A stretch of 64,000 nt of DNA, from positions 93,601 through 157,600 of the forward strand of contig CAXGWU010000001.1 in the NCBI GenBank assembly GCA_964013565.1. Reading direction: 5' to 3'. Positions 6,120 to 55,010 of this stretch are shown in pieces; within the stretch, counting starts at the first letter, position 1; every line of letters begins with the position of its first letter. A program made the translations under genes and the position numbers. Source of the stretch: an uncultured Oligoflexia bacterium (GTDB lineage Bacteria; Bdellovibrionota; UBA1018; UBA6935). The notes beneath the pieces are model-generated. The model ran no database searches. It saw only the letters and a program-made list of their open reading frames with translations, and was not told the origin of the DNA.

Positions 6120-8230
6120 GAGAGTTTAGATTTCATTTGTTCTAAAAAAGAAGACACCTTCTGTTCGTGTGCTTCTCGAAGAACTTGGCTTGAAAGATCA
6201 GGTGTAGATGAGACATCTTCTGTGAAAATTAAGTTTCCGGGTATTTCTGATAGGAATCGAGAAGGGTACCGAGGTACTGGTTTCCCGTATCGAATTCTAT
6301 TTTTTGCACGAGTCAGATAGAGTTTTTCTTTTGCACGAGTGATTCCAACGTAGCAAAGACGACGTTCTTCACTATAGTCTGTTGCTTCATCCATGACTCT
6401 TTGATGAGGAAGGTAACCATCCTCCATTCCCACTAAAAAGACAGTGGGGAATTCTAAGCCTTTTGAGCCATGTAAAGTCATGAGTGTCACTTCGTCTTTT
6501 TCCTTACTTTCCTCTTCTTCGCTTTCTTCTTCGGCATCAAGAGTCAATCGAGTGATGTATTCTCTTAAAAACATAAAGCTGTTTTCAGCAGGTTCTTCAA
6601 GTTTCATCTGTCCAAGGCCATGTGCGAGCTCTTGAACCATTTCCCATCGCTGAGATGCTTGTAGGGCATCATCAACGTCGTTTTCTATTCCAGTTCTCAT
6701 TCCTATCCATTCAAAAGTTTGCCTTGCCCAGTCCGCCATAGCCGTTGGTTCAGGCTCAATCTTTTCTAATGCGTTTCTCATCTTTTGGATAAGAGAAGCG
6801 AAGGTCATGACCGCTTGTTTGGGTTTAGTCTTTAAGTCTGCATCAGGAATTGACTCAAAAAAAGAACATTGGTTTTCTACTGAATGGCTATGAATGGTGT
6901 CGATGGTTTTTTTCCCGATTCCTCTTGCAGGCCAATTAATGATTCTTCGAAGTGCAGTTTCTTCATCTGGATTTAAAATCGTTTTCCAGTAACTGAGGGT
7001 ATCTTTGATTTCTTTTCGGTCTAGAAAAGAAAAAGATCCAACTAAACGATAAGGAATCCCTTTCATTCGGAGTGCTTCTTCGAAATGTCTACTTTGTGGA
7101 TTGGATCGAAATAGAATTGCAAAATCACTCCAGTTCATGAGTGTTTTGACTTCCCCTCCCTCGTGTTTTTTTGCGAGATCAAAAATTCGCTCGGCTACGG
7201 TAGTTGCTTCGTCATGATCATCTTCAGTTAAGATGAGTGTTATCGGAGGTCCATCTTCTTTTTGAGACCAAAGCGACTTAGGGTGCCTAACCGAATTATT
7301 TTGAATAACTTGATTTGCGGCATCTAAAATAGTTTGTGTGCTTCGATAATTTTGATCAAGAGTTACTGTTTTTGCTCCTGGGTAGTGTTTTCCAAAATTT
7401 AAAATGTGGGAAGGATCAGCCCCCCTCCAAGCATAAATAGATTGGTCATCGTCTCCCACCACGCAAATATTTTGTTGCTTTAGGGTAAGGAGTCGAATGA
7501 GTTCAAATTGGGCTTGATTGGTGTCTTGGTACTCATCAACAAGAATGTATTTAAATCGATCATTATAGGCGTCACAGACTTCAGGGTGTTTTTTTAATAA
7601 ATCAACAGCGTTGAATAATAAATCGTCAAAGTCCATCGCATTCATGGCCCGAAGTTGATCTTGATACTCCGGATAGGTGGTTGCCATTTCTAAAGCAATT
7701 GGAGAGGATGCCTCATTTCTAGCTGAATTCATAAAAAAAGCTTCAGATTGATGAGGGGGAATAAATCTGTTTTTTGCTTGTCCAATTCCAAACAAGATAA
7801 AAGAAGGATCGAACTTTTTATCATCCACACTATTTTTTCTTAGAATTTTTCTGATGATCTCAATTTGATCATTTTGATCTAAAATAGAAAATTGTGAAGT
7901 GTATCCTAAGCGACTCGCTTCTTGTCTTAAGATTTTAACGCAAAGACTATGAAAAGTAGAAACAGTTAGTCCTTGTGTTCTTTTTTGTGTGATTTTTCTC
8001 ACTTCTGAATAAACGCGGTCTCTGAGTTCTCCAGCAGCCTTATTTGTAAAGCTAAGTCCTAATATTTGGCGCGGAGAGACCTTCTTTTGAGTAATCAAAT
8101 GAATCATTCGATAGGTCATTGTGCTGGTCTTTCCACTCCCTGCTCCTGCTAGGACAAGAAGGGGACCTTCTTCGTGGAGAACGGCTTGGCGTTGATTTGG
8201 ATTGAGTTTTTTTAAGTACTTCGTTTGCAT
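6116..8230 (-). CDS. uvrD: UvrD/PcrA/Rep-family ATP-dependent DNA helicase
   Basis: Helicase SF1 motifs AGAGSGKT, DEYQDTN, QNYRS, LHGSKGLEF and VGITRAK. Confidence 0.9.
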   Translation of the reverse strand: MQTKYLKKLNPNQRQAVLHEEGPLLVLAGAGSGKTSTMTYRMIHLITQKKVSPRQILGLSFTNKAAGELRDRVYSEVRKITQKRTQGLTVSTFHSLCVKILRQEASRLGYTSQFSILDQNDQIEIIRKILRKNSVDDKKFDPSFILFGIGQAKNRFIPPHQSEAFFMNSARNEASSPIALEMATTYPEYQDQLRAMNAMDFDDLLFNAVDLLKKHPEVCDAYNDRFKYILVDEYQDTNQAQFELIRLLTLKQQNICVVGDDDQSIYAWRGADPSHILNFGKHYPGAKTVTLDQNYRSTQTILDAANQVIQNNSVRHPKSLWSQKEDGPPITLILTEDDHDEATTVAERIFDLAKKHEGGEVKTLMNWSDFAILFRSNPQSRHFEEALRMKGIPYRLVGSFSFLDRKEIKDTLSYWKTILNPDEETALRRIINWPARGIGKKTIDTIHSHSVENQCSFFESIPDADLKTKPKQAVMTFASLIQKMRNALEKIEPEPTAMADWARQTFEWIGMRTGIENDVDDALQASQRWEMVQELAHGLGQMKLEEPAENSFMFLREYITRLTLDAEEESEEEESKEKDEVTLMTLHGSKGLEFPTVFLVGMEDGYLPHQRVMDEATDYSEERRLCYVGITRAKEKLYLTRAKNRIRYGKPVPRYPSRFLSEIPGNLIFTEDVSSTPDLSSQVLREAHEQKVSSFLEQMKSKLS

Positions 8231-8310
8231 GGACGATCTTTACTTTAAGGATACGCGGTGCGCTAATCAATCAGAATTCCTTGATTTTATAAGAATCAAA
8301 AAGGAAAAGT

Positions 8311-9795
8311 TTATCGTTTACTGTTAAAAGACAAAAATACACGATTGCATTTTAAATTTTCCCAGCTTTTTTGGTGATCTTGATAAGATTTCACAAGGTT
8401 ATCCAGTATTCTGTTTTTGAAAGGAGCCTTTTCAGAGAAAATTCTTGTTACTTTTTTGCTTGTCATTGAAATTTTTTGAATCAATGTAAAAAGGGTTACC
8501 GAAGGCTGAACGTCTCTTAGAACAGTATTGAGAATGTTTTCAAATTCTTTAGAGGAGATTTTCTTGTTTTTTCGTGCTACGGCTGTTTGTTCAAGAACGA
8601 GAAGAGGGATCCAGCGGTTTTTATAGTTTTTTGAAATTCTATGATAGAATTCAAAAAATTTAGAAATATCTTGTTTTTTACTTTCTTTGTTGAATGGTTT
8701 GTAAAAATTAGCAATTTCAGAATTGATAGATTCAATGTTTATTTTTTCTTTTTCCATTTTTAAAAGTAAATCTTCTTCATAATTCTTTTTTGAGATTCTT
8801 TTTTTTGTCCTATTCTTGATTTTGAATTGGTAGCCTAGCGCTTGAGCTTTTTTTATGACTTCCGCTAAAAAAGAATCGCTTGTAACAAGTTCGTAAATCG
8901 CTTTTTGATATCTAAGGAGATTCATTCTTACATCCGAAGACTTGGGGCCGAGTGACTTGGCGTAGCTATGATTGTTTTTATCTGTTGTAATTTCTGCAAA
9001 GCTTTGATTCCACGCGCCTACATAATGTTCATATCCAACTTCAGCAAACTTTGTTGAGACTTGATCATAGTAGTGAAGAGGAACGATGTTTTTATGATAT
9101 TCTGTTTGATCTGCTTGTTCTAAATTTTTTAATGTAGTTTCTTGAATTTTTCTTTTTTCCTTTAGTTCATATATGGATTCTCGAAAGGTTGGGGCAACTA
9201 CGCCTATAAAATAAAGTCGAGAAATGATGTCTTTGAGGTTTCCCCCGGAGTTTTCGTAGAGTCGGTACATTGCAGCAAGACAAGCTCGTCCTTGTCGTCC
9301 ATTTCCTTTAGAAACGGTGTCTACGAGTATGAGAGGTCTACCATTCATTCCATTTTTTAAGTCAAACCCTTTGCTTTTAAAAAGGCTATAGATTTGTTCG
9401 TCTGTAGGGTTGAATTTTGGACTAAAATCAGGATCCATTCCAAAAGTTGCTTTACTCATCCCCACTCTAATTACTTTATTGGGTTCTCCGATGCTATTGA
9501 AAAACCCTTCAATAATATCTGAAAATATTAGACTATCTCGACCTAAGAAGCCAAAAACTGCGTCTGGATAGATAAAAGATAAATGAGCGATAAATCTTGG
9601 TGCCTCTTTTTCTATAAATTGAAACCAATCAGGAAAAGGATTGTTTCCAGGAATTTCTTTTAAAACAGATTCCACCTTCTTCATAGATGGTCTTACGTTT
9701 TGATTGATTAAATTATTAATATCTTGGTCTTTTTGAGTCCAAGATAACATAGGAGAAAATAAGATAAGTAAGGCAATATATATTTTTGTTTTCAT
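8311..9795 (-). CDS. exported hypothetical protein, GRD-family paralogue (PRTase-like motifs, tentative)
   Basis: Signal peptide MKTKIYIALLILFSPMLSW. FGFLGRDSLIFSDIIEGFF..GEPN..IRVG and GRPLILVDTVSKGNGRQG resemble the HGPRT-type VLKGGYKFFADLL and VLIVEDIIDTGKT loops. Full-length paralogue of 16931-18463. C-terminal KCNRVF motif. Confidence 0.45.
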   Translation of the reverse strand: MKTKIYIALLILFSPMLSWTQKDQDINNLINQNVRPSMKKVESVLKEIPGNNPFPDWFQFIEKEAPRFIAHLSFIYPDAVFGFLGRDSLIFSDIIEGFFNSIGEPNKVIRVGMSKATFGMDPDFSPKFNPTDEQIYSLFKSKGFDLKNGMNGRPLILVDTVSKGNGRQGRACLAAMYRLYENSGGNLKDIISRLYFIGVVAPTFRESIYELKEKRKIQETTLKNLEQADQTEYHKNIVPLHYYDQVSTKFAEVGYEHYVGAWNQSFAEITTDKNNHSYAKSLGPKSSDVRMNLLRYQKAIYELVTSDSFLAEVIKKAQALGYQFKIKNRTKKRISKKNYEEDLLLKMEKEKINIESINSEIANFYKPFNKESKKQDISKFFEFYHRISKNYKNRWIPLLVLEQTAVARKNKKISSKEFENILNTVLRDVQPSVTLFTLIQKISMTSKKVTRIFSEKAPFKNRILDNLVKSYQDHQKSWENLKCNRVFLSFNSKR

Positions 9796-9797
9796 TT

Positions 9798-11288
9798 CTA
9801 TTTTCCTCTCATGAGTGCAATTGCATCTTCTTCTGAATCAATAAGATGAATTCTTCTTTTTAACCATTCAGGGTAATGATCAGAGATTAAGTTTTTAAGT
9901 AACGGTTTATAGAATTCGCTATTTATAAAAGCTAATTGAGAGCGCTTATTTGGATTTCCAGAAAAATCAACAAAAGTTGTTGCTAGTTCTTTCATCGTTC
10001 CATTGCCTCCAGGTCCTACAAAAATAAGGTCTTTGTCGTGCAGTAAAAAAGGAATTCGTGTTTCATAATCCATTGATTCAATGACAAATCTTTTATTGCT
10101 AAAAGAATAAGATTTCCCAATGATAATATCGATGGCAGTTCCTCCATTATCAATGCTTGCATTTGCTGCGGCTTCCATGAGGCCACCCCCCCCACCGCTT
10201 GATAAGATATATTTATTTTTTGCAGAAACTTTAGCTACGAGTTGAACTAGTTGTCTCCAGCGATAGTCAAACGAACTAGACCCAAAAAAAACCGCTTTTT
10301 TATGATCTTTCAAACTTTCAGAAATATAATCTATATCTTCAATTCCAGCTAAGTAATTAGAGATGATTAATTTAAAACTATAATCAAATTGATGACTAAA
10401 CTTTTCTTCGTTGAAAGGAATAATGCTTTTATATCTATTGGGACCCGGAGTAATAAAACTTAAGTCATTTTTAATTTTTAAGTATGAAGACTTAAATTTT
10501 CCTAATGCTTTGAAATTTAAAAAGTCTGAATCCCATTCATTTTTATAGTTAATGAGGAAATCTAGTTTATCGATTAAATGAAGAGCTAAGGCTGTAACAG
10601 AACGAGTATCACCTACTGACTTTCCTATAGAAAAAGCTTTAAGTCTTAAGTAAGGATTTTCAATTGCAATGATGTTTTCATTTAAATTTTCTTTATTTGG
10701 GTCCGCAGTAATGCCTACTCCAAGTTTCCCTAATGTTTTTTGTATATCTTTCGCTGATATTGAATCTGCATCGTAGAAAAATATTTGAGAAAAATTAGAT
10801 AGTGTTTTTTTGAGTGAATTGAGATCGACTGTGGTTGGGTAATCGGTGGTTCCAAAAAGAAGAGTGTATGGATTCATATTGGAAAACGAATCTAACCACT
10901 TAAATCTCATAAGATCTGAAAGAAATGATTTTGATTGATCTTTTCTATCTAATTTAAAAATTTCCTCTATTGATAATTCTTGAGGTTTACTACTTTTTGA
11001 TGGAAGTTTTCTATTCTTGTTTTCGTAATGACTATTGGAATAACCTTTATAAGAATATGGGCTGTCTGTATCTAGACTTGTAACTGGAGATTGATAATCA
11101 AATTGGTATGTGTTGTTAACAGCAATCTCACTTATATCAGGAACTTCATCAATTTTAGGTGGTTTGATTCCGTGAATTCCAAAAACTAAAGCGCATTGAG
11201 AAGAAAATAAATGGTCCAAATTAGAAGTAGCGTTGGATGTTAATGTATAGATGATACCTACTATAGATATCAAAAAAAGATTTTTCAT
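9798..11288 (-). CDS. exported tandem LOG/TIGR00730-like protein (degenerate N-repeat plus intact C-repeat)
   Basis: Signal peptide MKNLFLISIVGIIYTLTS. The C-terminal domain carries both LOG signatures, SSGGGGGLMEAAANAS and VGPGGNGTMKELAT. Paralogue of 15189-16880 (YETRIPFLLHDK / YETRIPLLLHEK). The single Cys lies in an N-terminal CALVF. Confidence 0.65.
   Translation of the reverse strand: MKNLFLISIVGIIYTLTSNATSNLDHLFSSQCALVFGIHGIKPPKIDEVPDISEIAVNNTYQFDYQSPVTSLDTDSPYSYKGYSNSHYENKNRKLPSKSSKPQELSIEEIFKLDRKDQSKSFLSDLMRFKWLDSFSNMNPYTLLFGTTDYPTTVDLNSLKKTLSNFSQIFFYDADSISAKDIQKTLGKLGVGITADPNKENLNENIIAIENPYLRLKAFSIGKSVGDTRSVTALALHLIDKLDFLINYKNEWDSDFLNFKALGKFKSSYLKIKNDLSFITPGPNRYKSIIPFNEEKFSHQFDYSFKLIISNYLAGIEDIDYISESLKDHKKAVFFGSSSFDYRWRQLVQLVAKVSAKNKYILSSGGGGGLMEAAANASIDNGGTAIDIIIGKSYSFSNKRFVIESMDYETRIPFLLHDKDLIFVGPGGNGTMKELATTFVDFSGNPNKRSQLAFINSEFYKPLLKNLISDHYPEWLKRRIHLIDSEEDAIALMRGK
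10186..10193 (-). repeat. G8 homopolymer (C8 on the plus strand) inside the LOG GGGxG motif codons
   Basis: Direct read: ggccaccccccccaccgc. On the coding strand this is ggt ggg ggg ggt ggc, encoding GGGGG. Confidence 0.95.
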
Positions 11289-13237
11289 TTTATGTCCCCA
11301 ATAAAATTTTTCTCACATTTTTCCTCAATATCTCCATTAATTACTTCTTTTATAAATGTTTTTTTTATGTGAAGAGATTGAGCCCATTTATTTCCGAGTT
11401 CATCTAAATAGAGGAGTCTAGTTTCGGTATCTGTGGTTGTCGGAATGAGATGACCGTAGTACCAAAGGCTCCACGTTCCATTGTGAAAATATAAACTATC
11501 TGGAGTTAAACCGTGAATATATAGATTTAAATGAACTAGATGATCAAAAAAATCCGCAAGTGCTGTCCATGCAATTGTTTCATGAATTGGAACCGCTGCT
11601 TTATTTGAAAGCTCTCTTAAAGAAACTCCTTGTGGTTCATCTATCGCAACAAAATAAAGACTGTTTCTTATCTTAGAAACAATAATTCTATTCTCTTGTA
11701 GGTGCAATAGCTCATAGTATGAAGGTGTTCCTGGGTCAAACCTAAAGATCACTTGTTTTAAATTTTTTTCTTTTTGAATGATTTCATATTTTTTCAATTC
11801 TCCAATGTTCACTTTTTTTGGCGAAGAATTAATAAAAGGAGGCTCTTTTTTTATGTCATTATTTTCATAATTTAATTCATTACTTTTTTTTCGTCTTTTC
11901 TTTTTGGGACCTTTTGAATGATTTTGGAAGTTTTGTTTATCTAGTAATTCTTTCCAAAATAAATCAATTTCTTTTTTTTTGCTTTTAAGTTCTTCTCTTA
12001 ACCATTTTGTTTTTAGTTTGTTTGAGTATTCATTTAGAGTTCTATGTTTGCTGAAAAAAGTTCTAATTGGTCCGCTATCAACTATTTGCCATTCTTTTCC
12101 ATCAAAAATAAGATTGTCAGGGTTTAATCCGGAGACATAAATGTATTTTTCAGAAGCTTTAATGAAAAATTTTTCTAGTGCTAATTTTTTTGGGTTATTT
12201 TTTGTGTCTAAAATTTTTTCATCGAGAATCGCTTCTCTTAATCGAGTTCCTTCAATGAAATTCATAAGTAGAGACTTTTTATCTGTACTCCATTTCACAT
12301 TAACTGAAGACAGACCGTTTTTTCTCCATTCTTCTGATAGCTCTATCTGTTTTTTGAAACTTTTTTGAATATCCGCACTATCGTTTACTGGAACTTTCCA
12401 AGCCCATAGTTCTCCATTTGAGTCCTTTAACTGATGAACTCTACCTGTTTTTCCAACGCCTACGGCTTCTTTTTCTAATGAGTAACCTTCCGGAATATCG
12501 ACCTCTTTAACTGAGTTAATGAGAGCTAATAATTTTTCCCAGTTTTTTTCTTCAATCAAATCTTTGGCATTTTGTAAGAACTTTCTCCTTTGGCTAACTT
12601 CGGTAATGGTATTGGCTTTTTTTAGAACTTGAAAATGAATTGGTTCGAGATCAATTTTTGGGAAAACATACCGACTCAATCGCCTGAGAGTTTTTGTGTT
12701 TGCTCGGCTTGTGATAATCCAAATTAATTCAAAATCATCTCTATAAGAGGATAGAGGAAGGATATGTTTTGTAAAAGATTCTAATTCATCTAATGGTATG
12801 ATCGCTGCTGTATAACGAAGAGAAGGAAGTAAATTTTTTTCATTACTTTGAGTGAATAGTTTAAAGAGTGTAGAAAAGTTATAAATTTTTTTGTCGCTTA
12901 AAATGCCAATTAGAACATTGTTATTGTTTTTTCCTTTTTCTGAATGCAAATATTGATTAATAATGATGTCTCTTAGACAGAAACTTTCTGTCGCTAGTTT
13001 AATATAAAATTTATCAGGTGGGTTGTTTTGTGATTTAATGATTTCATCAATGATAGCTATATTCATCGCTTTATATTCATTGCTTTTCGCCAAAGATAGT
13101 TTTTTTATAACCTGAGAAATCGCCTCCCACTGTTGATTTTCGATTAGTTTTTTGAGTCGATGTGGAACCACGGTTTGAGCATGTGCTGGTATGATAAAAA
13201 ACAGACAAGCTAAATATAAGAAAATTTGTTTTTTCAT
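11285..13237 (-). CDS. exported protein with two atypical protein-kinase-like modules
   Basis: Signal peptide ending AHA-Q. Module 1: GVGKTGRV (G-loop), WAWKV, LLMNFIEG (hinge), GLNPDNLIF, IVDSG. Module 2: FVAIDEPQGVSL, IHGLTPDSLYF. Lys-rich linker KGPKKKRRKK. C-terminal KCEKNF. Confidence 0.45.
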   Translation of the reverse strand: MKKQIFLYLACLFFIIPAHAQTVVPHRLKKLIENQQWEAISQVIKKLSLAKSNEYKAMNIAIIDEIIKSQNNPPDKFYIKLATESFCLRDIIINQYLHSEKGKNNNNVLIGILSDKKIYNFSTLFKLFTQSNEKNLLPSLRYTAAIIPLDELESFTKHILPLSSYRDDFELIWIITSRANTKTLRRLSRYVFPKIDLEPIHFQVLKKANTITEVSQRRKFLQNAKDLIEEKNWEKLLALINSVKEVDIPEGYSLEKEAVGVGKTGRVHQLKDSNGELWAWKVPVNDSADIQKSFKKQIELSEEWRKNGLSSVNVKWSTDKKSLLMNFIEGTRLREAILDEKILDTKNNPKKLALEKFFIKASEKYIYVSGLNPDNLIFDGKEWQIVDSGPIRTFFSKHRTLNEYSNKLKTKWLREELKSKKKEIDLFWKELLDKQNFQNHSKGPKKKRRKKSNELNYENNDIKKEPPFINSSPKKVNIGELKKYEIIQKEKNLKQVIFRFDPGTPSYYELLHLQENRIIVSKIRNSLYFVAIDEPQGVSLRELSNKAAVPIHETIAWTALADFFDHLVHLNLYIHGLTPDSLYFHNGTWSLWYYGHLIPTTTDTETRLLYLDELGNKWAQSLHIKKTFIKEVINGDIEEKCEKNFIGDIK

Positions 13238-15192
13238 TTTTTAAGGTTTCCAGGTGTTCCAAATAGGATTTGACATGTCGAAGTACTGTTAGAACTAAAG
13301 CTCTTATTTTTACGACTGTCATGATAAAAGAACTCTTTTAAAAAATTCATATCTGAAAGCATTTCAGTTTGAGTTTTGTCTGTAAAAAAATAAGTATAAA
13401 ATCCTTTATTGAGACGTGGAGTGTAGTCTACATTAACAATTTGCTCAGCGTTATCGACCTGAAAATTTGCGGCTTTGAAGTCTAACCAAATGTTTTGTTC
13501 TGCTGCAATTTTTTTTGCGATAAGCCATTGTTCCAATACCTGGTTTTTTATTTTTTTCGGTATTTCTTCAATTGGATTTTGAGAATATTTTGCTTCTAAG
13601 TTTTTTCCGTCAAAGTAAGTTTGTTCTACAATTACCCCTGTTGGATGTGCATAAAGTATTTTTGCATGCCTAAAATTTGGATAATTTTTTAGAATTCTAT
13701 CTTGTGTCCATTTTTGCAAAAGAGATTTACGTGCATTTTTTGGGTTTTTTGTAATTTTAATAACTCTATTTTTATCACTTAAAAATACTTGTACATTTCT
13801 ACCTTCTCCTAGATATCCTTTTAACTTATAGAGGACTGCATTATTAGAGGTTAGAACCATTGGGTAATTTGGATCATCGCTTTTTTTGATTTCCAGAGAT
13901 GAAAAAAAGTCATTTGCTCCCTCTAATGGTTCCAGATATTGCCAATCTTTCATAGCACTGAAGCCTTTTTGATGGACTTCAGATATTTCCTGAAATAAGA
14001 GTTCGTTTTTGTTTAAGTCTTTTTTGTTTTTTCTTATTTTTTCTTGATTTTTAGTGGTCTTCTTTTTTACTGGAATAATTGTTTCAGCAAGTCGTAGATC
14101 AGATACTAGTCCAAGGAGTGATATAACTTTTTGAGATAGTTTTATAGGTTTGTCACTATAAATATGAAGTGACGGTTTTGTTTTAAATTTTAGTCCTGTT
14201 TGTATAAACTTATGACGATGCTCTAGTAGATTGTGAACATGATCAGCATCCCAGTGATTAATTGCTCCTGGAATAGCGATTTGAAATCGTTGAATAGAAA
14301 AAAAATAATCAGTTTCGGTGAGTTTTTTAATAGTCTCTGAAGAGAGTTCTTCGTTGTTCCTGGTGTAATTGTTGATAATATCTTTAAAAGAAGAGTTTCC
14401 ATCTACTCTTTTTGATCTCAAATATCTGAAATCTACAAGTTTCAGGAATTGAGTTGCTTCAGATTTATTTAGGTTTTCACAAATGGCTCTTAAAATTGCT
14501 CTGGGAATTTTTCCAGACATACTTGAATCCATAAATACTAAGCCATTTTTTAATAATCTCTCTTTTGTTAGTCCGATGGAATTTAATAAATGGTAAATTT
14601 CAGAAGTTTGATGGTTGAAGATTAAGTCTCTTATTTTCCTTGATACATTAAGGGTGTAAAGAAAATTTTTATCTATAGATTTTTTTAAAGAGATAAAAAG
14701 ATATGGAGCCGTAAAGTCTCTTCCTATAAAAAATAAATTTTTATTATTAAAATCTCTTTTGATTTCATTTTCTATTTGAGCGATTACAGGAATGATGACT
14801 TCTGTTTCGTATTCTTGAGTGTAACGAATAAGTTGATCTGTTATTTTTTTAGAATCAATTGAATCTAAAGAAACAACACCGATTTTTTTGTCTAATTCAA
14901 GAGCACTATTTTTAAGTTTTGAGCGTTTATTTGACCAATGAAAAAAGAGTTCATTGAAAAACTGAGTTTTTTCTTGAGTCGTTAGAGTTTTAACTTCTTC
15001 TAAAATTAAATAGATGTCATTACGAATTGACTCTAAAATATCGGTTTGAATCCATTTTTTAAGAAATTCATCGTAGCTATTAGAGTTTTGGGCTTGAAGA
15101 GCTGATTCATAGTGATTTTCTATTACATCGCTGGAAAATACATTAGTCTCAGTAAAGCAAAATAATAGAATAAATAAAATTAATTTATTCAT
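13234..15192 (-). CDS. exported fusion of a GRD-family (PRTase-like) N-domain and an ePK-like kinase C-domain
   Basis: Signal peptide MNKLILFILLFCF. N-half: LFFIGRDFTAPYLFISL and GLVFMDSSMSGKIPR. C-half: LGEGRNVQVF (GxGxxxxV), VIKITK (VAIK-like), VIVEQTYFDG (hinge), WLDFKAANFQV (DxKxxN), NVDY (DFG-like). C-terminal TCQILF. Confidence 0.55.
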   Translation of the reverse strand: MNKLILFILLFCFTETNVFSSDVIENHYESALQAQNSNSYDEFLKKWIQTDILESIRNDIYLILEEVKTLTTQEKTQFFNELFFHWSNKRSKLKNSALELDKKIGVVSLDSIDSKKITDQLIRYTQEYETEVIIPVIAQIENEIKRDFNNKNLFFIGRDFTAPYLFISLKKSIDKNFLYTLNVSRKIRDLIFNHQTSEIYHLLNSIGLTKERLLKNGLVFMDSSMSGKIPRAILRAICENLNKSEATQFLKLVDFRYLRSKRVDGNSSFKDIINNYTRNNEELSSETIKKLTETDYFFSIQRFQIAIPGAINHWDADHVHNLLEHRHKFIQTGLKFKTKPSLHIYSDKPIKLSQKVISLLGLVSDLRLAETIIPVKKKTTKNQEKIRKNKKDLNKNELLFQEISEVHQKGFSAMKDWQYLEPLEGANDFFSSLEIKKSDDPNYPMVLTSNNAVLYKLKGYLGEGRNVQVFLSDKNRVIKITKNPKNARKSLLQKWTQDRILKNYPNFRHAKILYAHPTGVIVEQTYFDGKNLEAKYSQNPIEEIPKKIKNQVLEQWLIAKKIAAEQNIWLDFKAANFQVDNAEQIVNVDYTPRLNKGFYTYFFTDKTQTEMLSDMNFLKEFFYHDSRKNKSFSSNSTSTCQILFGTPGNLKK

Positions 15193-16880
15193 CTTTTATT
15201 CCTCTTTTTATTAAAGAAATAAATTTCTTCATCTAAAAGGCCAAAGCTGAAGAGGGTCTCTATAGTGATTTTTAATTCAAAATCGTTTTTGACAAAATGA
15301 ATTCTATCTTTAATGAATTGCGGAATTGATGAGCTGTCGATTTGATTTTTTAAGCCACTGTAATAGTCATCACCCACAAAAATGATCTCTAATTTTTCTT
15401 TTGGGTTTTCTAGAAGTTTTAGAATCGTTATCCAAAATTCTTTCATGGTTCCAGAGCCTCCTGGAACAAAAACAACAAGTTGTTTTTCGTGAAGAAGGAG
15501 AGGGATTCGGGTTTCATATCCACTACTCGAAACGGTAAGAGAATGATGTTCTTTTTCTACTTTTTTTTCTGTTTTTAGAGTGTGTTTACCCGTGATAGGG
15601 ATCCCAACTGATGGAACATGAGATGATATTGCTGCAGTATTTGAAGTTTTCATGGCACCGCCAGCTCCGCCAGTCGTGATGCTAATATCAAGAGATCCTA
15701 AGGCGAGACCAGATTTGAAAATAAGGTTCTCAAAAGGATTCTCATCCCTTCCCGTTCCAAAAACTGCAGCTCCTCTTACTCCTGTTAAATCTTCTTGTCC
15801 GATTAGAAGTTCAGTAACTTCTTTGACGATATGATCAATTTGATAATCAGAAAGGTCTGAAAGAGTTATTTTTTTTGGTTTAAATTGTTTTGTAATTATT
15901 GGGAAAATTTCTGTCTCAACGTGAGGAGAGGTACGAATAGGCTCTCCTGCAAGGTCAAATTCTTGATTAAAGTAACTTTTACTGTAGATAGGAGATGAAG
16001 GGATTTTTTTAATCGCTGTAGTAACGGTTGTAGCTTGATCAAAAATAGGTATTTCTTTAGTTCGAACTCCCATGTTTATGTTCATAAGATCTAAGTCTTG
16101 TTTCCATTGATGAAGAGAAAAGTTCCATTCTTTTTTTGGATCAAAAATAATGTCTATTTCATTATTGAATAATCCCGCAAATCCAGTTGTGGAGTCAGGA
16201 GTTGTAATTATTTTTTCCGAGGTGTTAAATAAAGCCTGTGCTCTTAAGTAGGTGTTTTTAATGTAAACTTGGCCTCTTTGTTTTGTTGGTTGATTAGAGA
16301 TACCAAAAGATGATTTTTGAGCTAGAGATTGAATTAGTTTAGCGTAAGGACTATTTGATTCGTAGAGGATAAAATATCCACGAGAAATAAATTGAGAAAC
16401 TAATTCGGTCAATTCAGTTTGCATTTGAGGATCAGGCTGTGTTCCAGAAGTCCCTGCAAGAATCGTCACTGTTTGTTTTGAATTTAGTTTTTTTAATCTT
16501 TCTAGGTTGAGGTGATCTTGAATGTACTGACCTTCAGTAGTTAATAATACCAATTCAAGTGCTTTTAGGTTTTTTTCTCTGTTTGTTTTTTTTAGACGTT
16601 GAATCTCTGAAGTTATTTGAGCTATTTGCTTTTTTACCGATTGATTTTCTTTTTTTCCAGAATTACTAAAAATTTTTTTTAGTAATCCTCTTTGTTTTTT
16701 AGAAATTTTTTTAGTATTTAAAGACGTTAATTTTTTTTCTAATTCTTTAATCCGTTCTGACTCCTGATTTAGACTAGTTAGTCGTTCTAATGTGGATAGA
16801 CGACTTAAAAAATTTTCTTCACATCCGGCTAAAGAGAAGTGATGGGCAATTAAAGTTAAAATAATAATAAGTTTTTTCAC
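15189..16880 (-). CDS. exported (lipobox) coiled-coil plus tandem LOG/TIGR00730-like protein
   Basis: MKKLIIILTLIAHHFSLAGC (lipobox LAGC, then CEENF). Lys/Glu-rich coiled coil. Degenerate first repeat (TILAGTSG..ITTPDSTTGFAG). Intact second repeat with TTGGAGGAMK and VPGGSGTMKEF. Confidence 0.65.
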   Translation of the reverse strand: MKKLIIILTLIAHHFSLAGCEENFLSRLSTLERLTSLNQESERIKELEKKLTSLNTKKISKKQRGLLKKIFSNSGKKENQSVKKQIAQITSEIQRLKKTNREKNLKALELVLLTTEGQYIQDHLNLERLKKLNSKQTVTILAGTSGTQPDPQMQTELTELVSQFISRGYFILYESNSPYAKLIQSLAQKSSFGISNQPTKQRGQVYIKNTYLRAQALFNTSEKIITTPDSTTGFAGLFNNEIDIIFDPKKEWNFSLHQWKQDLDLMNINMGVRTKEIPIFDQATTVTTAIKKIPSSPIYSKSYFNQEFDLAGEPIRTSPHVETEIFPIITKQFKPKKITLSDLSDYQIDHIVKEVTELLIGQEDLTGVRGAAVFGTGRDENPFENLIFKSGLALGSLDISITTGGAGGAMKTSNTAAISSHVPSVGIPITGKHTLKTEKKVEKEHHSLTVSSSGYETRIPLLLHEKQLVVFVPGGSGTMKEFWITILKLLENPKEKLEIIFVGDDYYSGLKNQIDSSSIPQFIKDRIHFVKNDFELKITIETLFSFGLLDEEIYFFNKKRNKR

Positions 16881-16930
16881 CGTTTATTTAGTCCTTTTTT
16901 AAAAGTAAGATTTGCTTTTTTTAAAATGAT

Positions 16931-18463
16931 TTATTTTTTATCTATTTGTGTAAAAATTCGATTACATCCAGTTTTTGTAAGATAATCTGAGATGGTTTTA
17001 GTGTGTTCCGAAATTTTCCCTCCAAATTTGTCGGAGTTTTTAAATTCATCTTCTCTTTTTTCAAACATAGATCTGAATTTTTCATCGTTTTCATAAAGCT
17101 CCCGAATAGCTTTTAGTTGATCGTCAGAAAGAGAAGGAGTGTTGCCTAGGACATAACGATAAAGTCGTTTATAATCTCTTCCTTTAATTTTCTGAGAAGC
17201 TCTTGCTCTAGTGATAGCCTGCATAAATGGGACAATGATTTTGTCTTTAAAATCTGTATTTTGAAATTGCTTTAACCATTGAAGGTAGTGATTTCCGTTG
17301 TTTGAGAGTTTGTTTGTGATTTCTCCGGGTTCATTTAAAGATTGTTCTATTTCAAAAAGGTTTTTTAGATGTTCTTTAAGTTGTTCTTGTTTTTTCTCTT
17401 CTTGAAGAGCTAATTCTTTTTTTCTTTGTTTTTTTCTTTCATTGATTTGTTGTGACGTTAGTGATTGATAAAGTTTTGAATTTCCATCTAAATCAATTTT
17501 ATAGAGTTTTAGATATTCATCTAATTTGTCTTTAAATTCATTAGATTTAATGAGTTCGATAATTATATAAATTTCTTGTAAAACAGTTTTTTTTGAAATA
17601 TTCGAAAATTGCACGCCAGAAATTGGAATAAGTTTTTCGTTTATTTCTTTAAAACCTAGCCATGAATCATGCCACTCTGAAGTCCTATGATTTATCCTAA
17701 AAAAAGTTCCATAACTTGTGCTTAATCGTGGAACCGGTACGCCGTCTATATGAGATAGTGATGATACGTTTTCGAAAAAGTTTTCCTGATCAAAGTCTTC
17801 GTTGATAGTATGTTTTAGGTTGTTGTCGCTAATATTAACAAACGCAATTTTTCCAAGAAGATCTTTTGGGTCTTTTCCTAGATTTTTGTAGGTTTCATAG
17901 AGATATCTCATCGTTAGCCTGGATTGGCTTGCTTCTCCTCCTCCTCCTCCACTGGTATAAGTTGGGCTATAGCTACTAAAATCATAGAGAACCCAAGGGG
18001 CACTTTCTGTAATGGTATCGAAGTTAATGCCTAGAGACTGAGCATATCGAACAATGGTTTCTGAGGAAGAGTTTTTAAAACTTGGAGTACTTGCGTTGAA
18101 TCTTCCTGCGCGATTAGGCTCACCTCTCAGATAGTAAAACGCTTCCAGGGCTAGACTATTTTGGATGACATCTCTTCCAAGAGAAAAATATCTTCCTCCA
18201 GGAAAGGCTTTTTCAAAACTTACAATCATTCTGGCGATATTGTTTATAGCATTAGGGTAAGCATTAGCGATAAACTCTTGATTAAGCATTTTTTCATGAC
18301 TCGGCCATGGGTTGAGTACAGTGAGCATTTCTTCGATTGTGGGAACTGTTTTTTTTTGTACTAACTCATCAATTTGATTTTCTAATTGTGTTTGATCAGA
18401 AAAAGCAAAAGAAATGAAAAGAAAGTGGAGGCTAAAAAAAATAGATTTATTTATGAGTTTCAT
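16931..18463 (-). CDS. exported hypothetical protein, GRD-family paralogue (PRTase-like motifs, tentative)
   Basis: Start taken at internal Met MKLINKSIFFSLHFLFISFAF (signal peptide). This removes the overlap with the upstream gene. YFSLGRDVIQNSLALEAFYYLRGEPN and WVLYDFSSYSPTYTSGGGGGE. Single Cys in the C-terminal GCNRIF. Confidence 0.45.
   Translation of the reverse strand: MKLINKSIFFSLHFLFISFAFSDQTQLENQIDELVQKKTVPTIEEMLTVLNPWPSHEKMLNQEFIANAYPNAINNIARMIVSFEKAFPGGRYFSLGRDVIQNSLALEAFYYLRGEPNRAGRFNASTPSFKNSSSETIVRYAQSLGINFDTITESAPWVLYDFSSYSPTYTSGGGGGEASQSRLTMRYLYETYKNLGKDPKDLLGKIAFVNISDNNLKHTINEDFDQENFFENVSSLSHIDGVPVPRLSTSYGTFFRINHRTSEWHDSWLGFKEINEKLIPISGVQFSNISKKTVLQEIYIIIELIKSNEFKDKLDEYLKLYKIDLDGNSKLYQSLTSQQINERKKQRKKELALQEEKKQEQLKEHLKNLFEIEQSLNEPGEITNKLSNNGNHYLQWLKQFQNTDFKDKIIVPFMQAITRARASQKIKGRDYKRLYRYVLGNTPSLSDDQLKAIRELYENDEKFRSMFEKREDEFKNSDKFGGKISEHTKTISDYLTKTGCNRIFTQIDKK
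17936..17950 (-). repeat. (TCC)5 trinucleotide repeat, i.e. (GGA)5 on the coding strand, encoding GGGGG
   Basis: Direct read: tcctcctcctcctcc within gcttctcctcctcctcctccactgg. Confidence 0.95.
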
Positions 18464-18464
18464 T

Positions 18465-19850
18465 TTATTTAATCTTTCTGCGTATAAATAACGTTTTACA
18501 AAGTGGAGTCTTTTTTTCTCCTGAAAATACAGACTGTAAAGTTTCCGAAATTTCAAAACCTAAATTTAAAACTGATATATCTGGCTGAGTAATGTTAAAT
18601 GAATTCGTCACAACCATGAGATCAATGTCTGGCGAGTCAATTGCTTTTTGAGCGTTTCCTGCAAGATGGCTAACAACACCAAATATCTTATTTGCACCAT
18701 GCTTTTTAAGAAACTCTGCTGACTCGGCAAGTGTTCCTCCAGAGGCAGTTTCGTCATCAACAATCGCTACAGTATGCCCTTTTACAGAGTCTCCACTAAT
18801 CCCGAGAATACGAGTCTCTCCAGTGAGAGGATTTCTTTTCTTATTGATAATTGCGAGGGGTAGGTGAAGTTCTTCTGCATATAAAGTAGCATCTTTTTGA
18901 AAACCAGCGTCAGGAGAAACGATAATAGAAACTCCCAGTTTCTTGAGTTCTTTATTGATTGTTTCTCTTCCGTTGATTTCAAAAACAGGGATAGAAAAAA
19001 AACCTACACTCTGAGGTGCATGCGGTCTTACAATTGTTATTGTTTTTACTCCTAGTCCCTCAATGAGGTCAGCAGTGAGTCTTCCTGTTACAGTAATTCC
19101 AAATTGATCTATCTTATCTGATCGAGCATAAGGAAGGTAGGGAGAGATCAGGTGAACTTGTTGCCACTTTGATTGAGTGCTATATATTTTATGTAAAGTA
19201 TCAAAAAATGATTTGTTTATTGGAGACTCAAGAGAAGATACATAAAATATATTGTATCCAGAGAGCTTTTTATTGTTGGGGTTCCATTCAGATTCTTGAA
19301 TGACTGGGATATTGAGTTGTTTTGATAAGGTGTCTCTCAATGAAGGGTTTGTGTCTCCTACAATTGCAAACTTTTTTTTAAAATTTTTTGTTTTTGTTTG
19401 ATATTCTGGAAAGTCATAATCTTGGTTTGCAATACGGTAAGATTCCGCCCCCGAAATTTTGAAAAGTTTTAATACAAAAGTTGAAGGTAAGGATTCAGAT
19501 TCAAAATGAACGGATATTGATAAGGCACCCATTGTTTTAGCGGTGCGAACTTTAATGAGAGCTTCCATAAGAAGGTCATCATGATCTTCAATGTTGTTTG
19601 GAATATACAGAGTTAGTTTCTGATTGATAGGATTTTTTAAAAATCGAACAAAAGTATTTCCGTTGCTAAACTCCGTTGTTTTTGTCGGAAGAATTTTACT
19701 TTCAATAGTTTCAGAATACGATTGAGTCTTTGCCTCATATCCACGAATTCCAACAAGCCATGGCTTTTTAGAAGCGATACAAACATTTGAAAAGCTAAAG
19801 CTTAAAAGAAATAAAAGTCCAAATTGTATTTTTTTTTGTGCCCCACCCAT
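18465..19850 (-). CDS. ribose-phosphate pyrophosphokinase (PRPP synthetase) homologue with signal peptide and an extra degenerate N-half
   Basis: Prs motifs LISPYLPYARSDK, SPDAGF, the flexible loop KKRNPLTGETRILGISGDSVKGH, the PRPP loop VAIVDDETASGGTL, and VVTNS. The N-terminus MGGAQKKIQFGLLFLLSFSFSNVCIA looks like a signal peptide. Residues ~50-150 repeat the Prs N-half (FSNGNTFVRF..DDLLMEALIKV). C-terminal LCKTLF. Confidence 0.7.
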   Translation of the reverse strand: MGGAQKKIQFGLLFLLSFSFSNVCIASKKPWLVGIRGYEAKTQSYSETIESKILPTKTTEFSNGNTFVRFLKNPINQKLTLYIPNNIEDHDDLLMEALIKVRTAKTMGALSISVHFESESLPSTFVLKLFKISGAESYRIANQDYDFPEYQTKTKNFKKKFAIVGDTNPSLRDTLSKQLNIPVIQESEWNPNNKKLSGYNIFYVSSLESPINKSFFDTLHKIYSTQSKWQQVHLISPYLPYARSDKIDQFGITVTGRLTADLIEGLGVKTITIVRPHAPQSVGFFSIPVFEINGRETINKELKKLGVSIIVSPDAGFQKDATLYAEELHLPLAIINKKRNPLTGETRILGISGDSVKGHTVAIVDDETASGGTLAESAEFLKKHGANKIFGVVSHLAGNAQKAIDSPDIDLMVVTNSFNITQPDISVLNLGFEISETLQSVFSGEKKTPLCKTLFIRRKIK

Positions 19851-20214
19851 TAATACTTTTGATCCTTTCTTATGTGTTTCTAGGAGTCCTTAGAATTCGA
19901 ATTGCAATGTGTCAATCTGTATGGTTAAAAAAATTATAAGAAGAATTTGCTTTTTATAATTAAAACCAACTTAGATTGTTGTTTATGAATAGATTGATTT
20001 AATGAGATTTCTTTATAGATAACCGGTTATTTGATTTTAAAATCGGTTTGTTAATGCCTATTTTGTTGTTTAGAAGAATCCAATGATAAATTAATGCATA
20101 TTGCTAATCTAAATGGATGGAAGTTCTACAGTTTAATGAATAAAGACGAAGGATCTAAAGTTTATGAATGTGTCTGCCTTGTTCTAAATGAGGATCATGC
20201 TAGAGTACCATGCG

Positions 20215-52649: not shown

Positions 52650-52861
52650 GGAGTTTTTATAACGCAATAAGTCATTGTTTTCAATGAAGAAGGTTCGTAG
52701 GGCCTTTGATTCAAATTTCAGGTTCGACCCATGCATTTATTTGAAATTACTATTAAAATTGTAACGATTTAGTCTGGAACTTCGAATAAGTTCTATTACA
52801 GGCGAAAAATAGTACTTCTAAAAAGGAAAGTTTGTTTCGATTGACTCGATTATCAATCTTT

Positions 52862-54757: not shown

Positions 54758-55010
54758 AAACGAGCCCCTTTAGCGTTTTGTTTGTGATTTCAATAGTTAA
54801 CCTATCAAAGCTTTAAGAAAAGCAAAAGGAGTGGGGGTGTTTTGAGGTATTTATTATAAAAAACAATAAGTTATATGAATACTGTTGAAAAATAACCTTA
54901 AAAGTCAGATATTAAGGTTAAGGATCACTTCTATTACTCCGATAGGAAGTTAAGGTTTTATGGGCTTTTTGGTGTCCATGAATCTAAAAGTAAAAAAAAG
55001 GTTTAAGATC

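Follow-up and report, generated by a model that had tools for sequence, protein, structure and literature searches.

Glycan-type, PRPP-dependent phosphoribosyltransferases (gPRTs) are found in gPRT-PRP enzymes, such as those of Thermobacillus composti (7SHG) and Haemophilus influenzae (Bcs3 CriT-CrpP, 8A0C), in which the transferase is fused to a HAD phosphatase. Reduced or specialized kinase-like proteins have been described in several settings: OspG, NleH and HopBF1 are type III effectors that act on eukaryotic host proteins and have kinase cores of ~200 amino acids (aa) without the activation segment and the lower C-lobe, Fam20B and POMK act in the secretory compartment, and ILK, HER3 and STRAD are pseudokinases without the catalytic Asp. 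For access to PRPP, the known gPRT-PRP enzymes are stated to depend on a cytoplasmic location (PMC11127046).

We analysed a window of 64,000 nucleotides from an uncultured Oligoflexia bacterium (assembly GCA_964013565.1, contig CAXGWU010000001.1, positions 93,601 to 157,600), in which a kinase-like domain is fused to a gPRT-like domain; all coordinates below are those of the window. A preliminary description of this DNA had proposed secreted kinases among nucleotide-related genes. That proposal is supported in part; it missed that the genes form a predicted operon for phosphoribosyl transfer, with the kinase as one of several modules.

A seven-gene operon with export signals

Genes G-F-E-D-C-B-A form a tightly packed operon on the minus strand, extending from 19850 to 8311. 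Five of the six junctions consist of a 4-nt start/stop overlap or a gap of 1-2 nt, the exception being the 50-nt gap from F to E, and housekeeping genes flank the operon (thyA, folA and a gene for a UvrD-like helicase). A Sec-type signal peptide was recognized by inspection at the N-terminus of all seven products; the calls were made by eye from the sequence, and all seven proteins and their orthologues have a short signal peptide of n-h-c layout with an AxA-like site for cleavage. The signal peptides attributed to D and C in the preliminary description were of the typical Sec type, namely MNKLILFILLFCFTETNVFS in D (aa 1-20; 15133..15192, minus strand) and MKKQIFLYLACLFFIIPAHA in C.

The first gene of the operon, G (18465..19850, minus strand), encodes a PRPP synthetase-like protein that carries a signal peptide and scored 180.4 bits against TIGR01251 (cut-off 113, E 3.9e-53), with all equivalog models below their cut-offs, and matched the Pfam families Pribosyltran_N, Pribosyl_synth and Pribosyltran. 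Two further genes encode LOG/SLOG-like proteins. E (15189..16880, minus strand), which carries a lipoprotein signal (LAGC), is a predicted nucleotide 5'-monophosphate phosphoribohydrolase (Pfam Lysine_decarbox 33.1, cut-off 27; LDcluster4 29.4, cut-off 26.3), and B (9798..11288, minus strand) is its exported paralogue (blastp 1.7e-27; LDcluster4 32.5, cut-off 26.3); the motifs GGGxGxM and PGGxGTxxE are visible in both. The scores above cut-off for B, E and G, which make the neighbours LOG-like and PRPP-related, support the earlier description of LOG-like and PRTase-like genes.

F (16931..18463, minus strand), whose start is likely an internal ATG at 18463, one base past the stop of G, and A (8311..9795, minus strand), the last gene of the operon, encode exported gPRT-like paralogues of each other (blastp 7e-14) and of the N-terminal domain of D (A/F family against the D domain: hhalign 82.5%, E 1e-5, 209 columns; GRD, S and D invariant). 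The residues that do not vary in the family correspond to G85-R86-D87, S114 and D159 of A. No HAD-type phosphoribose phosphatase was found with Pfam or NCBIfam in D or in any other operon protein, and the chemistry after transfer may therefore differ from that of the known systems.

A predicted transferase domain and a kinase-like domain in gene D

Gene D (13234..15192, minus strand), the fourth gene, encodes a protein of 652 aa in which the reading frame, homologues, models and fold searches delineated, behind a signal peptide, a phosphoribosyltransferase domain of gPRT/CriT-like type and, across a disordered linker, a minimal kinase domain. The N-terminal domain (aa ~25-375; 14068..15120, minus strand) was modelled with a pLDDT of 93.8 and shows a catalytic core of PRTase-like alpha/beta type, flanked by helical bundles. 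Its motifs G157-R158-D159, S184-R185 and D222-SSMSG227, which are invariant or nearly so among relatives, sit after strands 152-156, 178-181 and 218-222, respectively. In motif order and strand position, compared against the published description, they mirror the loops of the CriT PRPP pocket, S678-R679-D680, S707-R708 and E818 with the main chain of the loop behind it (PMC10299916). The domain shares its fold with PRPP-dependent gPRT/CriT enzymes, carries motifs that by order and position would match their loops, and is a predicted transferase; its fusion to the kinase domain is kept in ~20 full-length relatives.

The C-terminal domain (aa ~433-640; 13273..13896, minus strand) had been credited with a full ordered kinase signature, and all five motifs were located: LGEGRNVQVF (aa 461-470), VIKITK (aa 477-482), VIVEQTYFDG (aa 520-529), WLDFKAANF (aa 569-577) and NVDY (aa 587-590). 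The key residues of the domain are G462xG464, K479, hinge E523, D571-x-K573-x-x-N576 and D589. A motif order not conserved in orthologues had been named in advance as a possible refutation; instead, each motif residue is kept by 38-47 of the 47 members of the family. For the Gly-rich loop (G462/G464), the beta3 Lys (K479), the catalytic Asp (D571), the Asn (N576) and the metal-binding Asp (D589), the figure is 43-47 of 47 (D571 in 47, D589 and G464 in 46, K479 and N576 in 45), and these residues are invariant in the 19 full-length members. The spacings from Asp to Asn (5) and from Asn to Asp (13) are the same as those in PKA (D166/N171/D184).

Searches beyond the family led to kinases as well. 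In a library of 1.84 billion proteins, the D profile matched P0057 and P0058 at 2e-4, both of which are true Pkinase proteins (Pfam Pkinase 9e-32 and 4e-37), and the D family member P0040 passed the ABC1 gathering score. The fold search, a check suggested in the preliminary description, returned almost only kinases: nearly all of the best 50 Foldseek PDB matches were kinases or APH, and the domain displayed the bilobal fold of the PKL superfamily, with a pLDDT in the full-length model that is only moderate in this part (50-77). Among 15 sub-threshold PDB sequence matches, 13 were STE20-type protein kinases. D itself had no Pfam match at E 1 or below and did not reach the PF00069 gathering threshold; neither D nor C directly matched Pfam, NCBIfam or PDB sequence models, and no Pfam kinase family matched the 19 full-length relatives at E <=0.1 except Kinase-PolyVal (0.082).

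The third Gly of the G-loop is replaced by Asn466, no conserved alphaC Glu was seen in the domain, and the APE motif, the alphaF Asp and the lower C-lobe (alphaG-alphaI) were not found in D. Only ~60 residues follow D589, the DFG-equivalent Asp, with a single helix in the model (aa 614-627), and a conserved P592-R593-x-N595 stands there in place of APE, alphaF and the later helices. The C-terminal domain is apparently a minimal protein-kinase-like fold with an intact ATP-binding and catalytic set and is predicted to be active, so that D, judged by its predicted domains, is bifunctional, with one gPRT-like and one kinase-like part.

A predicted pseudokinase in gene C

Gene C (11285..13237, minus strand), the fifth gene, encodes 650 aa, in which a signal peptide and an N-terminal region precede kinase-like module 1, and a linker rich in Lys leads on to the degenerate module 2. 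A TARA fragment (P0004) is identical to C, and the sole orthologue of C (L001:1002-3383, minus strand) shares 27% identity (E 2e-39). Module 1 (aa ~248-416; 11990..12496, minus strand) keeps its residues for nucleotide and metal binding (G260xG262xxG265, K281, N375 and D387), and the previously described G-loop GVGKTGRV (aa 260-267), WAWKV lysine (aa 278-282) and IVDSG (aa 385-389) were all located in the sequence. It aligned with the D kinase profile (hhalign 91.8%, E 7e-7, 128 columns); in addition, C matched the PADLOC kinase-type model PD-T4-6 (9.3e-6), and the orthologue scored 24.4 bits against Pfam Pkinase (E 2.3e-5), short of the 31.7 set as gathering score. Within YVSGLNPDNLIF (aa 367-378), Gly370 aligns with D571 of D, and the same Ser-Gly occurs in the orthologue. 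Because the catalytic Asp is Gly in both proteins, module 1, a kinase-like domain related to that of D, is predicted to be a pseudokinase, in agreement with the earlier suspicion of an atypical kinase or pseudokinase.

C had also been described as containing two kinase modules. The resemblance between them is real (Smith-Waterman score 73, against a mean of 33 and a maximum of 61 for shuffles, Gumbel p 6e-5; hhalign 68%, E 4.7e-5), but module 2 (aa ~520-620; 11378..11680, minus strand) is not a second atypical kinase: it repeats only the hinge-to-C-lobe part of module 1, in degenerate form. It has no recognisable G-loop or beta3 Lys and no match to the D kinase profile, and G576, S581 and Y593 replace Asp, Asn and Asp, the first two within LYIHGLTPDSLYF (aa 572-584). 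The catalytic-Asp position, given earlier as Gly or Leu, is Gly in both modules (G370 and G576), and the nearby Asp, said to lie three residues on, is four residues on (D374 and D580). This Asp aligns with the Glu of HRDLKPEN, so it is not clearly a catalytic base that has moved.

Occurrence in other lineages

The D family is rare, unnamed and outside Pfam coverage. PRS, SLOG, A/F-like and D genes are clustered in L001/L005, L007, L008 and L009, all with signal-peptide-like N-termini. The set thus occurs again in four assemblies from three further lineages, one of which is a MAG labelled Bdellovibrio. G orthologues with signal peptides adjoin D homologues in L001, L007, L008 and L009. N-termini resembling signal peptides are also found in many D homologues; D relatives without a signal peptide occur in virus-like contigs.

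Discussion

The fusion of a kinase-like domain to a sugar-type phosphoribosyltransferase-like domain, within an operon of predicted exported PRPP-making enzymes, points to ribose-phosphate chemistry outside the cytoplasm of the producer that has so far not been described and whose setting would probably be prey cells. With moderate confidence, we favour an exported pathway in which PRPP is made from nucleotides and ATP, ribose-5-phosphate is put on a hydroxyl acceptor and the D kinase acts on the same substrate. The LOG-like enzymes would convert nucleoside monophosphates to base and ribose-5-phosphate, G would make PRPP from ribose-5-phosphate and ATP, and ribose-5-phosphate would then be attached to a hydroxyl acceptor. 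The kinase domain of D would phosphorylate the same acceptor or the product, taking the place held by the HAD phosphatase in the known gPRT-PRP enzymes. These steps would proceed outside the producer cytoplasm where ATP and nucleotides are available, most plausibly inside prey, given that one of the three related lineages is the MAG labelled Bdellovibrio. The periplasm is not known to hold ATP or PRPP, so the pathway presupposes a delivery, as yet hypothetical, to prey or to some other compartment that contains ATP. The D-x-K-x-x-N loop, which is the Ser/Thr-kinase form, and the STE20-type nearest matches favour a protein over a sugar as the substrate of the kinase.

The same two features would suit a secreted protein-kinase effector acting on prey or host proteins, in which the fused transferase serves only for targeting or has an independent activity, as would the signal peptide, the protein kinases found as best fold matches, and the small size of the domain, ~200 aa as in the known minimal effector kinases. 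We nevertheless consider this unlikely: D ends shortly after its DFG-equivalent, without the APE and alphaF-alphaI substrate platform, the gPRT-like fusion persists across the full-length relatives, and the constant neighbours are PRPP/ribose-phosphate enzymes, not secretion systems.

The LOG-like and PRPP synthetase-like genes of the operon might alternatively indicate that the kinase domains phosphorylate a small molecule, as the preliminary description had suggested. With ribose, a nucleoside or a sugar phosphate as substrate, they would supply the ribose-5-phosphate/PRPP pathway or lengthen it. This is improbable, since LOG-type enzymes give ribose-5-phosphate directly and a ribokinase step is thus unnecessary; moreover, a Lys in D-x-K typifies protein kinases rather than the APH family, and the presence of a glycan-type transferase in the same protein suggests that both domains act on one macromolecular acceptor.

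SLOG and PRTase domains are frequent in nucleotide-centred conflict systems, and the cluster could be read as an intracellular anti-phage defence composed of a SLOG sensor, a PRTase and a kinase, with the hydrophobic N-termini as membrane anchors. Weak PADLOC matches (C to PD-T4-6, G to ShosT and PsyrT) and the signal-peptide-free relatives of D in virus-like contigs are in keeping with such a role. It is, however, very improbable, because no PADLOC system was matched as a whole, D, A, E and F had no PADLOC match, the signal peptides with AxA-like sites place the catalytic parts of all seven proteins and their orthologues outside, and the flanking genes are housekeeping genes. Finally, a chance resemblance of the motifs to kinases in AT-rich, Lys/Asn-rich reading frames, to which the missing direct model matches of D and C and the near-absence of Pfam kinase matches in the 19 relatives might be ascribed, is scarcely credible, being contradicted by the conservation of the motifs in 47 relatives, the reach of the D profile to true kinases, the kinases returned by independent fold searches and the profile-profile links of C to kinases.

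Comparison with known systems

In the exported ribose-phosphate pathway that we prefer, C may be a non-catalytic, nucleotide-binding partner or regulator. Like ILK, HER3 and STRAD, its module 1 keeps the G-loop, beta3 Lys, Asn and DFG-type Asp and has lost the HRD Asp, here to Gly; it differs from them in being bacterial and exported, in being followed by a decayed second copy and in lying in a metabolic-looking operon. OspG, NleH and HopBF1 resemble D in core size and in lacking the activation segment and the lower C-lobe, and D, like them, would be exported to act in another cell, but D has a Sec signal, a transferase fusion and a ribose-phosphate operon.

WaaP and the Kdo kinases of the LPS core, the WbdD-type O-antigen terminating kinase, Fam20B and POMK use a protein-kinase-like fold to place phosphate on a hydroxyl group of a glycan sugar. 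In K. pneumoniae O7, a gPRT-PRP enzyme has a methyltransferase-kinase module working alongside it (PMC11231755). The similarity of D to these glycan kinases is no higher than to other kinases, and a sugar substrate for D would be hypothetical. With eukaryotic-type Ser/Thr kinases (Pkinase; STE20-group STK24/25, PknB), D has in common the N-lobe and C-lobe core fold and the G-loop, beta3 Lys, hinge, D-x-K-x-x-N and metal-binding Asp in like order and spacing. It departs from them in the absence of a Pfam match at E <=1, in Asn466, in lacking a conserved alphaC Glu, APE, alphaF and the later helices, and in having P592-R593-x-N595.

By order and strand position, the motifs of D would match the active-site loops of the gPRT-PRP enzymes of T. 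composti and H. influenzae, where strands 1-3 lead into [S/G]-R-D, into S-R, and into an acidic residue with a phosphate loop behind it; sequence similarity to D is undetectable by HMMER. In both cases, the transferase is fused to a second phosphate-handling enzyme, which is a HAD phosphatase in the known enzymes and a kinase in D. Whereas the known enzymes are stated to depend on the cytoplasm for PRPP (PMC11127046), D has a signal peptide, and its gene neighbours are not those of a polysaccharide export locus but encode exported PRPP synthetase-like and LOG-like proteins of its own operon.

The C-terminal half of D is a minimal kinase-like domain

The kinase motifs quoted in the preliminary description for the C-terminal half of D (13234-15192, minus strand; 652 aa) were all found in the protein, with LGEGRNVQVF at residues 461-470, VIKITK at 477-482, VIVEQTYFDG at 520-529, WLDFKAANF at 569-577 and NVDY at 587-590. 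Because neither D nor C gave a direct match to Pfam, NCBIfam or PDB sequences, these motifs needed testing by other routes. When 5.8 billion proteins were searched by word index, only three D homologues (~31% identity) were returned, and a four-sequence D profile retrieved 58 proteins (36 below 1e-30) from 1.84 billion cluster representatives. The two halves of D are either fused or separate in this family, whose members are unnamed or annotated as 'hypothetical protein' throughout. Among the 47 relatives carrying the C-terminal half, D571 was invariant, G464 and D589 were each kept in 46, K479 and N576 in 45 and G462 in 43. In its Asp-5-Asn-13-Asp spacing, D matches protein kinase A (D166, N171, D184).

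The D profile matched two true protein kinases, P0057 and P0058 (Pfam Pkinase, 9e-32 and 4e-37), as its weakest hits. P0040, a clear member of the D family, exceeded the gathering score of ABC1, an atypical kinase family. When a 19-sequence profile was compared with PDB sequences, only sub-threshold matches were obtained (E ~0.3), 13 of 15 being STE20-type Ser/Thr kinases, which aligned with D from the hinge through HRDIKAAN/WLDFKAAN to the DFG Asp. The AlphaFold2 model of whole D was mediocre (pLDDT 62; 50-77 in the kinase part); in a Foldseek search of the PDB with this model, protein kinases and aminoglycoside phosphotransferases nonetheless made up nearly all of the top 50 matches. The earlier reading of this half as a kinase was thus borne out by both fold matches and conservation of the motif residues, and, with its catalytic set intact, the domain looks active.

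Compared with canonical kinases, the domain is minimal: just ~60 residues follow D589, the APE motif and the lower C-lobe are missing, and the family has no conserved alphaC Glu. None of the 19 full-length D relatives reached the Pfam kinase families. Taken together, the conserved motifs, the fold matches and these departures indicate that the D kinase forms a small new family in the kinase-like superfamily.

The N-terminal domain of D resembles glycan phosphoribosyltransferases

Modelled alone with 28 sequences, residues 21-385 of D gave a pLDDT of 93.8 and a pTM of 0.92. The CriT domain of Bcs3 is a PRTase-like core that transfers ribofuranose-5-phosphate from PRPP to a glycan hydroxyl, and its pocket is formed by S678-R679-D680 in loop 1, S707-R708 and R712 in loop 2, and E818 with the following main chain in loop 3 (PMC10299916). 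After its first three parallel strands, D has G157-R158-D159, S184-R185 and D222-SSMSG227, all invariant or nearly so; judged by order and position, these would correspond to the three CriT pocket loops.

Two further genes of the neighbourhood, A (8311-9795) and F (16931-18556 as listed), encode proteins that are related to each other (7e-14) and have relatives that include several proteins adjoining D homologues in other loci. A 16-sequence alignment of the A/F family matched the D N-domain profile over 209 columns (hhalign 82.5%, E 1e-5; 59% in a test with a smaller alignment), with GRD, the loop-2 Ser and the loop-3 Asp invariant in A/F and in register with D. The first, four-sequence D profile did not pick up A, F or C, for which deeper profiles and hhalign were needed. 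We regard the fusion of the D kinase to a glycan-type phosphoribosyltransferase-like domain, together with the predicted exported, PRPP-generating operon, as the more important content of this region.

C is a predicted pseudokinase

C (11285-13237, minus strand; 650 aa) contains GVGKTGRV at residues 260-267, WAWKV at 278-282, YVSGLNPDNLIF at 367-378 and IVDSG at 385-389, with a second copy, LYIHGLTPDSLYF, at 572-584, as the preliminary description had reported. Residues 256-393 matched the D kinase profile over 128 columns (hhalign 91.8%, E 7e-7), the G-loop, K281, hinge, N375 and D387 being in register and Gly370 lying opposite the catalytic D571. The loop VSGLNPDN resembles YRDLKPEN with Asp replaced by Gly and Lys by Asn; the nearby Asp noted in the preliminary description aligns with the Glu of YRDLKPEN and is not an evident replacement for the catalytic base. 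C also matched the kinase-type PADLOC model PD-T4-6 (9.3e-6). Its sole orthologue (793 aa; locus L001; 27% identity, 2e-39) has the identical Ser-Gly at the catalytic-Asp position and matched Pfam Pkinase at 2.3e-5, under the gathering score.

Module 2 of C (~residues 520-620) resembles module 1 from the hinge on (local score 73, with shuffles reaching 61 at most, p 6e-5; hhalign 68%), carries Gly, Ser and Tyr at the Asp, Asn and Asp positions, lacks a G-loop and the Lys, and did not match the D kinase profile. Of the two atypical modules proposed earlier, the first is therefore pseudokinase-like, whereas the second is a decayed partial copy, and C is best described as a conserved predicted pseudokinase followed by a decayed partial duplicate.

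In a word-indexed search, the sole match to C was a 100% identical 410-aa fragment (residues 1-410) from surface water of TARA Oceans station 125, in the 0.22-0.45 um fraction, pointing to a marine bacterium of very small size as the source of the window. Repeating the search with a two-sequence alignment returned the same fragment and nothing more, and a metagenome scan found no relatives of C.

A probable operon encoding seven predicted exported proteins

D and C belong to a run of seven ORFs called at 8311-19850 of the window, every one on the minus strand, in the transcription order G (18465-19850), F, E (15189-16880), D, C, B (9798-11288) and A. Four-base overlaps occur at E/D, D/C and C/B, the B-A gap is 2 bases and the F-E gap 50 nt; if the internal ATG at 18463 is taken as its start, F begins one base past the G stop. 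With this tight spacing, the seven genes look like a single operon. Its G+C content (8000-20000) is ~31%, against 38-40% in both flanks, which may reflect foreign origin or merely proteins rich in Lys, Asn and Ile. The flanks contain ordinary chromosomal genes, including those for a UvrD-like helicase, thymidylate synthase, dihydrofolate reductase and cytochrome c assembly proteins. A promoter and terminator scan of the operon was uninformative, yielding fewer sites than in shuffles, and Rfam and tRNA scans of the whole window found nothing. An 81-aa ORF in another frame of the same strand (13077-13322, minus) spans the D/C junction and is most likely spurious. Elsewhere in the window, three large ORFs without a Pfam match encode 906 aa (50016-52736, minus), 505 aa (48550-50067, minus) and 1175 aa (54960-58487, plus), the first lying within a second low-G+C patch (31% at 50001-52000).

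The N-termini of all seven proteins, from which signal peptides were assigned by reading the sequences, have a short basic stretch, 10-15 hydrophobic residues and a cleavage region of small residues; the lipobox LAGC is present in E. Some members of the D family lack a signal peptide as called. For at least one of these, P0009 (start region L009:9949-10001), the called start is too far downstream, and translation from a Met further upstream in the same frame adds the signal peptide MLQTWLFSSILFFTLFS; annotation artefacts may therefore account for some of the apparently signal-less members.

The D family is linked to predicted enzymes of PRPP formation

G scored 180 bits against the ribose-phosphate diphosphokinase family TIGR01251 (curated cut-off 113) and matched Pfam Pribosyltran_N in two stretches, its ~120 extra N-terminal residues resembling a degenerate copy of the N-terminal half-domain. 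PRPP synthetase-like proteins with a Sec-type signal peptide are encoded in the window (18465-19850, minus) and at L001:3677-5125, L007:5645-7042, L008:5636-7060 and L009:5167-6573; no description of an exported PRPP synthetase was found in the literature searched.

B and E exceed the Pfam thresholds of LOG/SLOG families; LOG-type enzymes convert nucleoside 5'-monophosphates into base and ribose-5-phosphate. B and E also share a conserved N-terminal region of ~300 aa (similarity from residue 98 on, 1.7e-27) that matched no family; a G-rich strand-loop pattern in that of E may represent a second, degenerate SLOG-like domain.

The same set is clustered in four other assemblies, represented by L001/L005 (a MAG titled 'uncultured Bdellovibrio sp.'), L007 and L008, and L009. 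There, a D homologue lies together with a PRPP synthetase-like gene, between one and three LOG/SLOG genes and between one and five A/F-like genes, and every protein of these linked sets has a signal-peptide-like start. In addition to its C orthologue, L001 encodes, directly adjoining the D homologue, a 335-aa RelA/SpoT-domain protein with a signal peptide (L001:12006-13013, minus; Pfam 1.6e-09), a further pyrophosphokinase-type enzyme in the exported set that has no counterpart in the window. On another contig, L011, a LOG/SLOG gene lies near the D homologue, and no PRPP synthetase gene was called inside its 10-kb flanks.

Two D-family proteins, P0017 (L010:1276-3156) and P0021 (L012:10001-11899), have no signal peptide as called and are encoded on contigs with many small unannotated genes. 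A NUDIX hydrolase gene adjoins each of them and both contigs encode a GMC oxidoreductase; collagen-like tail-fibre proteins, a DnaB-like helicase and a 1175-aa family-2 glycosyltransferase are encoded near P0021. These contigs look viral, suggesting a role for the transferase-kinase fusion inside infected cells as well, where PRPP is available.

Possible function of the operon

The analysis shows the domain identities, the complete catalytic set of the D kinase, the loss of the catalytic Asp in C, the operon layout and the conserved gene linkage. As to mechanism, we hypothesize that the LOG-like enzymes would release ribose-5-phosphate from nucleotides and that G would convert it with ATP into PRPP, the released AMP being available to be split anew. 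F, A and the N-domain of D would then transfer ribose-5-phosphate to hydroxyl acceptors, the D kinase would phosphorylate the same acceptor or the product, and C would serve as a nucleotide-binding regulator or scaffold. As predicted exported proteins that all depend on ATP or PRPP, they would have to work where these compounds are available, most plausibly inside prey. We tentatively propose, as a possibility held with rather low confidence, that a predatory or cell-invading bacterium exports a self-contained PRPP economy, in which gPRT-like transferases, including the transferase-kinase fusion, decorate a macromolecule with ribose-5-phosphate and phosphate. PRPP would be made outside the producer's cytoplasm from the victim's nucleotides and ATP by the LOG-like enzymes and the PRPP synthetase; the decorated macromolecule, perhaps cell-wall glycan, LPS, protein or nucleic acid, would belong to the victim or the invaded compartment; and the signal-peptide-less relatives in virus-like contigs would act likewise inside infected cells.

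The D-x-K-x-x-N loop and the STE20-like matches speak for a protein-kinase effector; the lack of a substrate platform in D and the constant fusion and gene linkage speak against it. That the kinase acts on a small molecule, as the preliminary description suggested, is possible but found no specific support. A defence system is unlikely given the signal peptides, and PADLOC gave weak domain-level matches only, without a system match. Chance occurrence of the kinase motifs is excluded.

If an exported PRPP economy is correct, PRPP could be both formed and consumed beyond the producing cell, prey would undergo a modification of an undescribed kind, glycan or effector chemistry would gain a new transferase-kinase architecture, and a gene set conserved in a Bdellovibrio-labelled MAG and related assemblies would acquire a concrete biochemical activity. 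For kinase biology, the region adds a rare minimal-kinase family outside Pfam coverage, represented by 58 of 1.84 billion proteins, as well as a predicted pseudokinase partner with a conserved Asp-to-Gly change.

Comparison with known systems

The discovery of PRPP-dependent sugar transferases dates only from 2022-2023. Our searches of the literature on exported PRPP synthetases, Bdellovibrio kinases and the operon gene set returned nothing relevant; the folds are all known, but in the literature searched we found no account of the architecture, the location or the gene set. A loose precedent for a kinase beside a gPRT enzyme is the methyltransferase-kinase terminator of the Klebsiella pneumoniae O7 antigen (PMC11231755). 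The known PRPP-dependent sugar transferases are described as restricted to the cytoplasm, since PRPP is located there (PMC11127046). The operon would challenge this rule, which makes a set exported along with a PRPP synthetase of its own unusual. Compared with these enzymes, the D branch is divergent, carries signal peptides, has a kinase in place of a phosphatase as fusion partner, and travels with exported PRPP synthetase-like and LOG-like enzymes, the latter a possible supply of ribose-5-phosphate.
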